From Escherichia coli (GTDB lineage Bacteria > Pseudomonadota > Gammaproteobacteria > Enterobacterales > Enterobacteriaceae): 64,000 bases of DNA. Below, piece after piece: positions 1,005 through 63,329 of the stretch. A program made the translations under genes and the position numbers. Each line of letters opens with the position of its first letter. Within the stretch, counting starts at the first letter, position 1. The notes below the pieces were generated by a model. It ran no database searches. It saw nothing but the letters and a program-made list of their open reading frames with translations, and was not told the DNA's origin. Where the stretch lies: NCBI RefSeq assembly GCF_001677475.2, contig NZ_CP015229.1. One strand, written 5' to 3'.

Positions 1005-1085
1005 GGAAGTGTTTTTTGCGCCGATGCCGGATGCAGCGTTTATTGAACTGCACCCCAAATGTTGGACATAATCTGACATCTGAAG

Positions 1086-1616
1086 GTGCAGTTTATGAAA
1101 CATTCATTTGAAGTAAAACTTGCCGCTGTAAATCATTACCTGGCTGGTCATGCAGGCATCATTTCTACGGCAAAACTCTTTCAACTTTCTCACACCAGCC
1201 TCTCACACTGGATTAATCTTTTTCTTCTTCACGGTCCTCGGGCACTGGATTGCAGACACAAGCGTAGCTATTCTCCTGAAGATAAACTTTGCGTGGTTCT
1301 TTATGCTCTCGGGCATTCTGAGTCTCTACCCCGGGTAGCTGCCCGGTTTAACATTCCCAGCCACAACACGGTTAAAAACTGGATAAAAGGCTACCGCAAA
1401 TCTGGTAATGAGGCCTTTATCAGGCGCAGGAAGGAGAAAAGCATGACCCGTTCTGATGATACCCATGAAAACGAGGCAAACATGACGCCGGAAGAGATGA
1501 AGAATGAGCTGCGTTATCTTCGCGCAGAAAATGCATATCTGAAAGCCATGCAGGAGCATCTCCTGGAAAAAAAGCGCCAGGAGCTGGAGAAAAAACGAAA
1601 GTCATCCAGAGCCTGA
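1086..1616 (+). CDS. IS3-family transposase OrfA (HTH, leucine-zipper-like C-terminus)
   Basis: 176-aa ORF with IS3 OrfA architecture; slippery heptamer A AAA AAG at 1568-1574 near its 3' end. Confidence 0.8.
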   Translation: MQFMKHSFEVKLAAVNHYLAGHAGIISTAKLFQLSHTSLSHWINLFLLHGPRALDCRHKRSYSPEDKLCVVLYALGHSESLPRVAARFNIPSHNTVKNWIKGYRKSGNEAFIRRRKEKSMTRSDDTHENEANMTPEEMKNELRYLRAENAYLKAMQEHLLEKKRQELEKKRKSSRA

Positions 1617-1619
1617 GGT

Positions 1620-2477
<858 letters not shown>

Positions 2478-48054: not shown

Positions 48055-51000
48055 ATGGAAGAGGCATTCTGGGCGGCAAGGCAGGGTGATGCCCTGCTGC
48101 ATACGTCGTTTATGGCAGATGTGCTGGGGGCAGTTGTAGAGGTTGCCGCCACAGCCCTGGTGGATGTTCTGGTTGTCGGAACCATGGCGGCGCTGGGCGG
48201 AGTTGAAGTGGCAACGCTGGGCTGCTCAACCATTTTAGCGATCGGTATAGCAACAGCGGTATTTATGTCGTATCAGGGCTGGAATGACCGAATCAGTAGG
48301 GAAAGTGAGCAACTGGCGAACTGGCTTTTCCCGCCTCAGATTGAAGGTTACATCCTCACCGGCTCTGGCGACACATGGATCAACAGCAAACCTGCCGCGC
48401 GGGCCGCGGCGACTGCGGCATCGCGGCAGGACATTGAGGCGCAGGAGGCGCAGGCGAAGGCGGAACAGGAAGAAGCGCAGCGTCAGGAGGATGCCAGAAC
48501 GTTCCTGGATGTGGCCGGGGAATATCTGGAAATGGCGGGGGCCATAGCCCTGGCGGTTAACCCGGTGACAGGGCCTGTGCTGATGTCCCGGGCGCTGCAC
48601 GACCAGCTCAGTACGGAAGAAGGGCGTTCTGAAATGGTGGATGGCGTGACACATTTTGTGTCGGAACTATGGCAGCCCACCGTGGCCAGTGCGGCCCCGG
48701 GCTCCACCCCGACCCCTGACGATAAAATCGACTGCCATAAACATCCCTCCTCACTGACGCAGTTTCTCGCACAAAAAAAAGCCGCCTTTCTGGATGACCC
48801 CCTGGGAACGGCCCTTAACCTGCTGAGTCCGGGCGGTATGCTGGAAACCGCCTTTCAGGGAGTGAATGCGGTTATTGGCAGCATCAGTAATCTGTTCAAA
48901 GGCGATGATGAACCGCCCGCAGCGGAATATATCGCGGAAGGCGCGCGGGATGTGCGTATCAACAGCCAGCCGGCGGCACGCAGCGGGGCACGCTGCACCT
49001 GCGAGGCCAGGGTGGTGAATGAGCCGGGGAACGGGGCGTTTGTGTCACCGGATGTCCGCATTGGCGGTCCGTTACTGGTGGTCAGGGATATCAGAAGCGG
49101 CAGGTCGCAGATAACCCTGGTGGCAACCGTGGCGCTGATGTTTCTTCGCCCGGGCAAAATGCTTTCTAAAATCGCCTGTTTTGCTGCCAGTGTCGGGATG
49201 GGGGTGATGACGCAGAAGGCCATCAGTGCCCTTCCGCATCCGGTCAATGCCGCCACCGGAGCCAAATATCTGGCCGATGACGATGATTTTGACTTCAGTC
49301 TGCCGGGCCACTTTCCGCTGGACTGGCAGCGCGTGTACAGCAGTCGTGACGACCGCACGGAAGGGATGTTCGGGCAGGGCTGGAGTGTAATGTATGAAGT
49401 CAGCCTCGAGCGCACGCCGGGTACTGCTGACGAAAACTGTATGACCTTTGTGTCGGGCATGGGACGACGTCTGGATATGGAGGCCGTGCTGCCGGGGAGC
49501 GGGTTTTACAGCCCCGGCGAAGGACTGGCAGTACGGCGGGGTGAGCAGGGGCACTGGCTTATCAGCAGCGATGACGGGCAGTTTTTTCTGTTTGAGGCCG
49601 ACCCGCGTCACCCGCAGCGCCAGCGGCTGAAAATGCTGGGCGACCGCAACAGCAACTGTCTGAATCTGTACTACGACGAGCTGGGGCGCATCACGCAAAT
49701 CAGCGGTGAACAGCAGCGTCCGTGCATCCGTCTGCATTATGAACTGGCGGCGCATCCCCGGCGGGTGACACAGATTTATCAGCATTTCCCTGAGATGGCT
49801 CCTTTACTGCTGCGTCGTTACCGCTATGACGAGGCCGGCGACCTGAACGGCGTGTACGACAGCACGGGGCACCTGCTGCGCGAGTTTGCTTACGACGAAA
49901 ACCACTGCATGACCCTGCACCGCCAGCCGGGCGGCGAAGGGTATTATTACCAGTGGGGCTGGTATGAAGGCCCGGATGACGCAGCGTGGCGGGTGACGGG
50001 GCACCACACGGACAGCGGTGAACAGTACCGGCTGGCGTGGAGCCTGGCGGCACGCAGGCTGTGCGTGACGGACGGGCTGGGGCGCACGCGTTATCATCAG
50101 TGGGACGCGCAAAATCAGGTGACGGCGTACCAGGACGAAGCCGGGCAGGTGACGACGTTCCGCTGGAGCGACGAAGAACGGCTGTTACTGGGAATGACCG
50201 ATGCGCAGGGCGGCAAATGGCGCTATGTGTATGACCGGCAGGGGCATATCACGGAGACGCACGACCCGCTGGGGCGGGTGGCACAGACACAGTGGCACCC
50301 GGTGTGGCACCAGCCGGAAACGGAGGTGGACGCGGCGGGGAACAGCTGGTGCTGTGAGTACGATGAACGCGGCAATCTTCTTGCGGTGACCGACCCGCTG
50401 CAGCAGAACACCCGGTATCAGTATGACCGCCACGGCCAGGTGGTGCAGATAACGGATGCGCGCGGGGGGAATAAATACCTTCAGTGGAACGAAGACGGGC
50501 AGCTCATGCGGCACACGGACTGTTCCGGCTCGCAGACGGCCTGGTTCTACGACGAACGCACGCGGCTGATACGGATGACAGACGCGCAGAGCCACAGCAC
50601 GCGCTACGGGTATGACGACAGCGGCCACCTGACGGAGGTGATACTGGCGGACGGCCGCACGGTGAATTACCAGTCGGACGCGGCGGGCAGGCTGGTGAAG
50701 TACACCAGCCCGATGGGGAGGATAACGCGCTGGCAGCGGGACGGGCAGGGCCGGGTGCGCAGCCGGACAGACGCGACGGGGCGCAGGACGGCGTTCGGGT
50801 ACGATGCCTACGGGCGTCTGGTCACGCTCACGAACGAGAACGGAGAAAGCTACCGGTTCCGCCATGACGTGCTGGACCGTCTGGCGGAGCAGATAAATCC
50901 GGACGGCTGCCGCCAGACGTACCGCTACAACGCGCTGAACGCGGTCACGGAAGTGGTGTTCACCGGGGACCGGGGCGGTGAAATCCGCCACCGGCTGGCA

Positions 51001-53169: not shown

Positions 53170-53211
53170 TAAAAAGCCGGGTGAAATTAAATCTTCCCGG
53201 CTTTTTTATTA
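53170..53211. terminator. Hairpin terminator (AAAGCCGGG-loop-CCCGGCTTTTTT), first of four copies of this motif
   Basis: Perfect GC stem flanked by A and T runs between the immunity gene and the convergent symE-like gene; similar hairpins at 57795-57835, 60412-60452 and 62816-62902. Confidence 0.7.
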
Positions 53212-53212
53212 T

Positions 53213-53542
53213 TTAACTCTCGTTCAGCACACTAAACATCCCGTTCCGCATCCCCTTAACCACCTGTTTAACCTGATAAAGTTCTTCCCGCAGCTCCTGC
53301 ACCTCGTCACTGTCAGCGATGATGGTCAGGTACCCCTCCGAAATCTTCACCGTGACACCCCGCCCGGTATCAAATCCCGCCTCAGCCAGCCAGTCGCCCT
53401 TGAGGTGCAGGCTGGGATGTTGTGAATAATACCGGGCTATACCTGTTGTGCGGTCCTGGTGGCGGGTTCTGACATAGCCGACTTTATAGCGGCGCTGGGT
53501 TTTGGAAATGGTGACTTCTGGCGTAATATCGTGTTCAGCCAT
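53213..53542 (-). CDS. SymE-like protein (type I toxin family, AbrB/MazE-like fold), full-length copy
   Basis: 109-aa ORF; core HLKGDWLAEAGFDTGRGVTVKISEGYLTII resembles SymE KGxWLxxAGFxxGxxVxV motif as recalled. Confidence 0.6.
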   Translation of the reverse strand: MAEHDITPEVTISKTQRRYKVGYVRTRHQDRTTGIARYYSQHPSLHLKGDWLAEAGFDTGRGVTVKISEGYLTIIADSDEVQELREELYQVKQVVKGMRNGMFSVLNES

Positions 53543-57790: not shown

Positions 57791-57836
57791 AATAAAAGCC
57801 GGGACGGTTATTAAATCTTCCCGGCTTTTTTATTAC

Positions 57837-60391: not shown

Positions 60392-60452
60392 GATTATAAT
60401 ATTATTAAGTTATAAAAAGCCGGGAATATAATCTTCCCGGCTTTTTTATTAT

Positions 60453-62530: not shown

Positions 62531-62815
62531 ATGAGTGTTGAATATGTTATACATGTCGATGATAAAGTAGATAATTTACTTTCTTTTATTGTCGAGAGAA
62601 TAAAGGAAAATCAACCATCCTCTCGAATTAATACTGACGGTTCACTTTGGATTCCATCTAGCTATTCAAATTGGATTGATTTTTCAATAGAAGACCATGA
62701 GGATGGTTTTTTTATTGTAAATAATTTAAATGGAAGTGATAGAGATAAATTATTTTCACTGATATTTACTGCCTTTCATGAATTATCTATAAAATATGAA
62801 ATAGAAGAAGTCTAA
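62531..62815 (+). CDS. Putative immunity protein for the orphan toxin tip at 62120-62518
   Basis: AT-rich 94-aa ORF 12 nt downstream of the toxin stop. Confidence 0.5.
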   Translation: MSVEYVIHVDDKVDNLLSFIVERIKENQPSSRINTDGSLWIPSSYSNWIDFSIEDHEDGFFIVNNLNGSDRDKLFSLIFTAFHELSIKYEIEEV

Positions 62816-62828
62816 TGAAAGCCGGGTT

Positions 62829-62880
62829 TTTGGACTGACCCCATAAAGTTGGACACCCAACTGATTAAGGTGCAGTCCAA
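62829..62880. mobile_element. Miniature inverted-repeat element resembling back-to-back IS3-family terminal repeats, inserted in a terminator loop
   Basis: TTGGACTGACCCCATAAAGTTGGACA ... CAGTCCAA; resembles the IS IR TGAACTGCACCCCAAATGTTGGACA at 1044; the other three hairpin copies lack this ~52-bp segment. Confidence 0.4.
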
Positions 62881-62902
62881 CATATTCCCGGCTTTTTATT
62901 AT

Positions 62903-63136
62903 TTAACTCTCGTTCAGTACACTAAATATCCCGTCACGCATACCCTTAACCACCTGTTTAACCTGATAAAGTTCCCTGCGCAGTTCCTGTACTTCGTTGT
63001 TATCTGCAAGCAGGATCTGGCAGCCTTCCGAGATCTTCACGGTAACGCCCGTGCCGATCTCAAATCCCGCTTCTCTCAGCCATTTTGCGCTGATTTTGAT
63101 TACCGGCGTGTCGCTGCGGTTGGGCAGATAACCCAC
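62903..63136 (-). CDS. SymE-like protein, short paralog (77 aa)
   Basis: Near-identical to the 57837-58070 copy. Confidence 0.55.
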   Translation of the reverse strand: MGYLPNRSDTPVIKISAKWLREAGFEIGTGVTVKISEGCQILLADNNEVQELRRELYQVKQVVKGMRDGIFSVLNES

Positions 63137-63329
63137 GGTACAGTGGCGCTGTGTTTTGGAAATGATATTTTTGTATTTAACCTGCTGATTAGATAGTAAA
63201 ATAAACTTCGTGCAGATAGCTTACTTTATCAGGGTGTGGCGGTAGCGTATGAACTATGATGCGGTGGTTTCAGGAATGTACGTACAAAATCGATAGTACG
63301 ATCCTCCAATCAGGTAGATTTGCTGCCCT

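Follow-up and report, generated by a model that had tools for sequence, protein, structure and literature searches.

The insert carried in the loop of a terminator-like hairpin between an Rhs immunity gene and symE, within a stretch of 64,000 nucleotides of Escherichia coli DNA (hereafter the window, meaning that stretch at its full length), is, judging from its sequence, a non-coding and non-autonomous derivative of an ISKpn1-like insertion sequence (IS) of the IS3 family. It is fairly ordinary: a fossil present in one copy, and not a miniature element in the course of spreading. A relic of IS ends formed in place, by internal deletion or template switching, is favoured with some reserve over a MITE mobilised in trans. 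The features concerned are collected in Table 1.

Table 1. Positions of the features discussed in the window, followed by the 49-bp sister elements found elsewhere.
Feature	Position or source	Strand	Remarks
IS1397, 1433 bp	1044..2476	+	Within REP/PU palindrome, TTAT duplication; 99.9% to annotated copies
Paralogous hairpin 1	53173-53204		Loop 14 nt
Paralogous hairpin 2	57795-57828		Loop 16 nt
Paralogous hairpin 3	60416-60444		Loop 11 nt
Immunity-type ORF upstream of insert-bearing hairpin	62531-62815	+	
Host hairpin with insert	62818-62895		AAAGCCGGG/CCCGGCTTT, T-run after 3' arm
Host hairpin 5' arm, AAAGCCGGG	62818..62826	+	Repeat search: 9 nt, 100%
49-bp IS-end element	62831..62879	.	TG...CA tips, no ORF; 49/49 to product rebuilt from L063
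Long arm of element	62831..62855	-	25/25 to right terminal inverted repeat of L062, L063 and L064, inverted
Segment matching ISKpn1-like left-end nt 15-46	62845..62876	+	31/32 to L062, 32/32 to L063/L002
Host hairpin 3' arm, CCCGGCTTT, then T-run	62887..62895	+	Repeat search: 9 nt, 100%
SymE ORF (truncated) beyond insert-bearing hairpin	62903-63136	-	
49-bp sister element	Yersinia similis, L028		Duplication TAAT
49-bp sister element	Lelliottia, L057		Duplication GTT
49-bp sister element	Pseudenterobacter, L027		Duplication none
49-bp sister element	Metagenome contig L074		Duplication TAA
49-bp sister elements	Metagenome contigs L069, L073, L075		No exact duplication of at least 3 bp

Between positions 48055 and 63136, the window holds four tandem modules, the first with a full Rhs gene (1560 aa) and the others with orphan C-terminal fragments. 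Each continues with a small immunity-type ORF, a conserved hairpin and a full or truncated symE on the opposite strand, and the left arm of the hairpin goes with the variable immunity gene, the right arm with the conserved symE side. In all four modules the hairpin has a Rhs-associated small ORF (+) on one side and a SymE-family gene (-) on the other, a position which indicates that the hairpin is a common bidirectional terminator-like structure, and the copy at 60414 was scored as terminator-like by a terminator scan. Three paralogues with the same stem occur in the 64-kb window against none expected in shuffled sequence, and the loops of 11-16 nt attributed to them in an earlier, sequence-only reading of this DNA were borne out. 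In the fourth hairpin the order read in the sequence is gaAAGCCGGGtttt-TGGACTGACCCCATAAAGTTGGACACCCAACTGATTAAGGTGCAGTCCA-acatattCCCGGCTTTtt, where TGGACTGACCCCATAAAGTTGGACACCCAACTGATTAAGGTGCAGTCCA is the loop insert. The window is E. coli-like, its lnt-gltI-gltJ region having 98.3% identity to the best match among complete E. coli genomes.

Several Rfam models touch on this locus. A full-length isrA match (107.5 bits) is found at 53343-53471 (+), antisense within a 109-aa SymE ORF (53213-53542), together with a weak partial match (32.8 bits) at 63033-63116 (+), opposite the truncated SymE gene; isrA here resembles a SymR-type antisense partner of symE. The Ssr1 model (Shigella small RNA 1, 654 nt) aligns to 62668-63166 (+) with 252 bits against a gathering score of 820, and evidently covers the module of Rhs immunity gene, hairpin and symE antisense rather than a compact small RNA. 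In this alignment the model's hairpin is empty at the point where 48 extra nt stand in the window, which independently marks the segment as an insertion. At the insert site itself, the Rfam scan gave no family at gathering score, Ssr1 and StyR-143 being sub-threshold and covering the flanking module, and the element was found to belong to neither REP/BIME nor ERIC nor another curated repeat or RNA family.

The composition of the element can be followed almost nucleotide by nucleotide. With its limits placed by the TG...CA tips of full-length relatives, nt 1-25 correspond to the inverted right end of an ISKpn1-like IS (25/25; nt 1423-1447 of a Citrobacter braakii IS against window 62855-62831, local BLAST), nt 26-46 to the leader just inside the left end (21/21) and nt 47-49 to the tip CCA, and a product assembled in silico from one Pantoea copy (L063) is identical to the window element (49/49). 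Read on the other strand, it consists of the left tip (nt 1-11), 13 nt of inverted leader and the 25-nt right inverted repeat. The short arm accordingly joins the tip to the stretch of leader that complements the left tip, and is not a second copy of the terminal repeat, while the long arm is of the right-end type and two indels away from the left-end type; this combination is termed chimeric below. The segment that matches the left end contains the core AAAGTTGGACA, an inner palindrome (AGTTGG/CCAACT) and an SD-like AAGGTG inside the leader motif GGTGCAGT, which is itself complementary to the ISKpn1-like left tip. A repeat search gave inner arms at 62830-62837 and 62873-62880 (TTGGACTG/CAGTCCAA, 8 nt, 100%), and the arms of the element pair over 8 bp exactly, or over 11 bp with one bulge. 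The sequence-only reading had described an extra segment of about 52 bp (62829-62880) in this fourth copy, made of two inverted arms resembling an IS3-family terminal repeat. The insertion is confirmed, with its limits drawn in to 49 bp (62831-62879), and so is its derivation from IS3-family ends only, the alignment to IS3-family termini proposed as a check having given the matches above; a view of the arms as simply two copies of the terminal repeat is not supported. No other copy was detected in the 64-kb window with up to 3 mismatches or by blastn-short, the arm string occurs once against 0 expected in shuffles, and no target-site duplication is present at the window copy (TTTT before and ACAT after the element; TTTT and TCAT in another E. 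coli carrier, L001).

The parent lineage comprises ISKpn1-like ISs of 1445-1447 bp with orfA/orfB and about 80% nucleotide identity to annotated ISKpn1, in which the OrfB of one copy (L062) matches the NCBIfam IS3 family transposase NF033516 with 343.7 bits (cutoff 160). In E. coli, the left end of a 1445-bp IS3-family IS (L002) matches nt 1-46 of the insert only, and closer copies, of 1447 bp, are found on plasmids of C. braakii, Pantoea ananatis and Rahnella. The left and right inverted repeats have the 11-nt core AAAGTTGGACA in common, and since the leader complements the left tip it also repeats the right tip, (G/T)CAGTCCA, in direct orientation. Full-length copies segregate GATT and GAGT leader variants. 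A literature search found no paper in which these terminal sequences are printed. IS1397 and ISKpn1 belong to the same clade, and both are placed in the IS150 group by ISfinder.

A member of this clade is present in the window itself, as the IS1397 copy at 1044, and the sequence-only reading had linked the element to it. The likeness is real: the two have a family-level consensus in common, agree at 22/25 positions of the left inverted repeat and carry the same GGTGCAGT leader motif. It is also moderate, with different tips (TGAACTG vs TGGACTG) and 39/49 matches overall with 5 gap columns, against 49/49 for ISKpn1-like ends, and the transposases of IS1397 and the ISKpn1-like lineage are just 42% (OrfA) and 52% (OrfB) identical. 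IS1397 was rejected as parent on these figures, the ISKpn1-like lineage taking its place, and a source in the copy at 1044 is extremely improbable. No IS1397-derived miniature elements were found in the 64-kb window. The IS1397 copy has an in-frame TAG in orfB (..KLMQ*LGLK..) and is probably inactive. The earlier remark that this IS had landed in a palindrome was correct, as it lies within a REP with a TTAT duplication.

IS1397 and ISKpn1 are known to target REP loops (reviewed in PMC1525189). A corresponding preference for hairpin loops, suggested in the sequence-only reading, was recovered for the lineage of the element, with five of seven full-length ISKpn1-like copies lying in loops and every one of these a terminator-like hairpin. 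When these seven copies are taken together with ten miniature elements, 11/17 insertions lie in loops, compared with 4.5% of 20,000 random positions of the window; a loop was defined by an exact stem of at least 6 bp and a loop of at most 16 nt, a definition used because an earlier criterion based on 60-nt MFE folds passed 26% of random sites. The typical target stem is a terminator of A-tract, GC-stem and T-tract, as in aaaagcctcagacTAA-IS-TAAttctgaggcttttttt. Among the five full-length copies in loops, four have an exact duplication of 3-4 bp and the E. coli copy (L002) an imperfect one (TCT/TCC). Target duplications accompany 5/7 full-length copies and 3/10 miniature elements elsewhere, and the exact ones include TAA, CAT, TTT, TCGT and AATA. 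The ISKpn1-like sub-lineage targets terminator loops, so that Rho-independent terminators are to be counted, besides REPs, among its landing sites, and this habit of landing in hairpin loops explains the location of the element.

When the hairpin was compared by blastn with 5426 complete E. coli genomes, 142 had a match, in one place each. The search for further copies, proposed as a check in the sequence-only reading, gave none at other sites in these complete genomes: the miniature element is present in four of them, again in one place each and always in the same hairpin next to symE. The four carriers (94% identity) have a different upstream gene, as in L001, and it is the symE side of the module that the element accompanies; the copy in strain 2014C-3338 differs from the window element at 3/49 positions. 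Among the matches listed beyond the four carriers, the query span covered was the same as in L002. All matches carry the annotation 'none', and annotation pipelines overlook such remnants. Neither a full-length IS at the same hairpin nor a 49/49 element of the simple type described below was found in the 5426 genomes, and every Enterobacterales genome examined has one copy. The chimeric form was found at no second locus in a scan of one genome per species and a metagenome scan; two metagenome matches (L070, L072) were set aside as chance matches, not chimeric copies. No exact empty site was found; the one allele of this immunity gene that turned up with an empty hairpin (L076, strain 2012C-4221) has a different loop, from which the insertion point and any duplication are not reconstructable.

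An architecture-pattern scan of one genome per species and a junction-specific metagenome scan revealed seven sister elements of 49 bp (Table 1). All have a simple form, in which the left inverted repeat (nt 1-25) is followed by the leader (nt 26-46) and CCA, and most are at hairpin sites. The simple form corresponds to a deletion between the leader (G)CAGT and the right-tip (G/T)CAGT, and one metagenome element (L074) is identical to the in-silico product of that deletion (49/49). A 65-bp variant from Buttiauxella (L046) has a different junction, TTTATGG, and two longer copies, of about 830 bp (L068) and 620 bp (L079), have lost part of their interior. The miniature elements carry both of the GATT and GAGT leader variants of full-length copies, which argues for several independent origins. 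Together with the left-end variants below, these derivatives show a lineage that decays by deletion and template switching, both of them frequent in it.

Some relatives are altered at the left end itself. In two 1434-bp ISs (L067, L071) and the internally deleted copy of about 830 bp (L068), all of them ISKpn1-like variants on metagenome contigs, the leader complement has taken the place of nt 12-25 of the left end, giving a perfect 40-nt palindrome (TGCACCTTAATCAGTTGGAC joined to GTCCAACTGATTAAGGTGCA) that is a signature of quasi-palindrome template switching. On Pantoea agglomerans megaplasmids, an internally deleted relative of about 620 bp (L077-L079) has no right inverted repeat and the N-terminus of orfA fused to the C-terminus of orfB. 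The first 49 nt of this relative, TGAACTGCACC...GGTGCAGTTCA, close with 11 nt that complement the left tip perfectly, immediately before a GTG start, so that the 49-nt unit is already present inside some IS copies.

According to the favoured account, a full-length ISKpn1-like IS, or a derivative of one, would have entered the terminator-hairpin loop common to the Rhs-immunity gene and symE, and its entire coding interior would then have been lost via short repeats built into the left end, where the leader is expected to mask the SD-like AAGGTG of transcripts that read through. Slippage, or a switch of template, from one of these repeats to another would give the simple product seen in other genera or the chimeric product of the window. 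A long arm of the right-end type calls for a double template switch or a two-step history: the strand may have passed from the left tip to the leader complement via the 8-nt inverted repeat and from there to the right inverted repeat via the 11-nt core, or the left inverted repeat may have been converted beforehand. The one-step precursor of the chimeric arm, a full-length IS with the left end TGGACTGACCCCATAAAG...GGTGCAGTCCA, was not found; the palindromised variants L067, L068 and L071 would give 46-48/49, a figure from comparison by hand and not computed. At present the relic would be immobile, single-copy and old, and recombined next to a different upstream gene. Several points count against this account, among them the extra step that the chimeric arm requires and the failure to find an exact empty allele or, in the 5426 E. 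coli genomes, a full-length IS at this hairpin. A deletion in situ should keep the target duplication, which is missing here, and the simple architecture recurs at seven further loci with a junction microhomology of just 4-5 nt exact (6-7/8 inexact), a recurrence that transposition of a pre-formed element explains equally well. Speculatively, both the chimeric arm and the missing duplication could be put down to elements in paralogous hairpins having recombined.

The sequence-only reading had proposed a MITE. Such an element, arriving already miniature, would be a unit of 49 bp in which the left inverted repeat is complete and the leader serves as a pseudo-right end, moved in trans into hairpin loops by the OrfAB of full-length copies. 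The insert does have the general build: it is short (49 bp), non-coding and bounded by terminal inverted repeats related to an autonomous IS, with a terminal match and TG...CA tips that point to an IS3-family parent with orfA/orfB. The identical 49-bp architecture at the seven other loci of Table 1 speaks for mobility, since several lie in hairpin loops and 3/7 have exact duplications (TAAT, GTT, TAA), although a duplication is also expected after deletion in situ and does not discriminate between the two models. The right arm mimics an inverted repeat, its 11-nt tip being equal to the left tip and AGTTGG standing at nearly the same spacing, and in the Pantoea relative the first 49 nt already end in the perfect tip complement GGTGCAGTTCA. 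One 2.8-kb metagenome contig (L075, Ga0157364_1054242) bears both a miniature element (139-187) and a full-length ISKpn1-like left end (2674-2828, at the contig end), 2.5 kb apart, and related 50-52-bp elements in Pseudomonas and Paucimonas are multi-copy, up to 6 per genome, with 3-4-bp duplications. Against this stand the lack of dispersed copies (one in the 64-kb window, one per Enterobacterales genome examined and, among 5426 E. coli genomes, four carriers with the same locus), the lack of a 3-4-bp duplication at the window copy, the restriction of the chimeric form to the window locus, and the GATT/GAGT variants, which imply repeated origin. For the window copy the MITE proposal is not supported, and an arrival as a mobile unit is regarded as possible but rather doubtful.

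A bolder extension concerns the leader. In the IS1397/ISKpn1 clade the left inverted repeat and the leader stretch complementing the left tip together make up the first 49 nt of the IS, and the leader is normally read as hiding the ribosome-binding site from read-through transcripts. It might in addition act as a built-in spare right end, such that one slip restoring the 3-nt tip would create a 49-bp unit movable by the parental transposase into terminator or REP loops, with relatives in the clade having seeded multi-copy palindromes of 43-52 bp in Pseudomonas and Bacteroidota. This is put forward as an unlikely proposal. If it were true, the 49-bp unit would rank among the smallest known transposable units and would offer a route from IS ends to REP-like palindromes spread genome-wide.

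The segment is predicted to form a very stable coaxial hairpin (z = -7.1 and -5.6). The hairpin with insert has a predicted folding energy of -40.0 kcal/mol; removing the insert in silico gives -16.1, and the three empty paralogues range from -16.2 to -20.4. In these predictions the + strand retains both stem and U-run, the - strand retains the stem, and this retention, through coaxial stacking of the insert on the terminator stem, would explain why the insertion is tolerated. The stability, together with the fact that the segment is kept with the symE module in two contexts and that the region aligns to Rfam Ssr1 below gathering score, could suggest that the extra 49 nt belong natively to the Rhs/SymE terminator or small-RNA region, as a functional extension of no transposable origin. 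A segment that matches IS termini at 49/49 positions, that is missing from the three paralogous hairpins, the Ssr1 model and an allele of the same immunity gene, and that is present in just 4/5426 complete genomes makes this explanation highly improbable. The element most likely does nothing active and is probably neutral. For the window itself the consequence is small, namely a single-copy scar which lengthens the terminator hairpin between the Rhs immunity gene and symE.

Other palindromic elements were encountered outside the Enterobacterales lineage. In Pseudomonas and Paucimonas (L022-L024, L031-L039, L048-L050, L053, L055, L058 and L060), elements of 50-52 bp are built from a pair of inverted repeats, each about 22 nt long and fused to the other, TGGACTGCCCCCAAGAAGTTGGA...TCCAACCCTTGGGGGCAGTCCA, and stand beside the REP motif CTCCCACAGG. 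Many of these IR-IR elements have exact 3-4-bp duplications, and a genome has up to 6 copies; they have the appearance of a genuine multi-copy MITE that belongs to the same IS clade and targets REPs. Shorter IR-IR elements, of 43-44 bp and with the same tips (TGGACTGCCCCCAAAAAGTTAGACA...), occur in Sphingobacteriia, Flavobacterium, Chryseobacterium and Pedobacter (L029, L045, L054, L059, L061), and one of 51 bp with the same tips is found in Brevibacillus (L041). A/T-flanked hairpins hold some of these 43-51-bp elements, and an AAT duplication accompanies L061. The tips in common indicate a terminal consensus that spans phyla; these cross-phylum elements are of more interest than the window copy.

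With regard to the ISKpn1-like lineage, the leader hairpin at the left end would predispose the IS to collapse into a reproducible 49-bp remnant. Such remnants could mark past IS occupancy and module shuffling in Rhs/SymE loci and, if mobilisable, would define a near-minimal substrate of an IS3-family transposase.

Compared with ISKpn1 and IS1397, the element has similar terminal sequences, TG(G/A)ACTG(C)ACCCC...GTTGGACA, with TG...CA tips, and a similar position in the loop of a palindrome. It differs in its size of 49 bp without orfA/orfB, against 1433-1447 bp, and in having no target duplication at the window site; its nearest full-length relatives are about 80% identical to ISKpn1 and, in the copies examined, lie in terminator-like hairpins and not in REPs. 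A second parallel is provided by the 'nearly precise excision' of Tn10, which reportedly leaves a palindromic remnant of 50 bp (Foster et al. 1981 are said to have described it). There, too, a palindrome of about 50 bp stays behind at the insertion site, and the process would need no transposase, relying on slippage between short direct repeats inside long inverted repeats. The repeats of the element are of 4-8 nt as opposed to 24 nt, however, its parent is a single IS and not a composite transposon, and the event is deduced from its product.

Bacterial MITEs such as MITEPsy1, ERIC, Correia and RUP are likewise short and intergenic, with terminal inverted repeats and no transposase. The general definition of MITEs includes an origin from ISs by loss of the interior (PMC3189936), and the element is similarly IS-derived by interior loss and folds as an RNA hairpin. 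In contrast to their sizes of about 100-300 bp it has 49 bp, it is single-copy with no duplication at the site, and its right arm is the leader's complement of the tip, which makes it a chimera of right inverted repeat and leader. The IR-IR elements of Pseudomonas (50-52 bp) and Bacteroidota (43-44 bp) resemble it in their tips, TGGACTGCCCCC...GGGGGCAGTCCA, in a GTTGGA/GTTAGA core and in lying in or beside palindromes, many with 3-4-bp duplications. Unlike it, they are direct fusions of two inverted repeats, each complete and about 22 nt long, they occur in multiple copies (up to 6 per genome), and they are not close to it in sequence.
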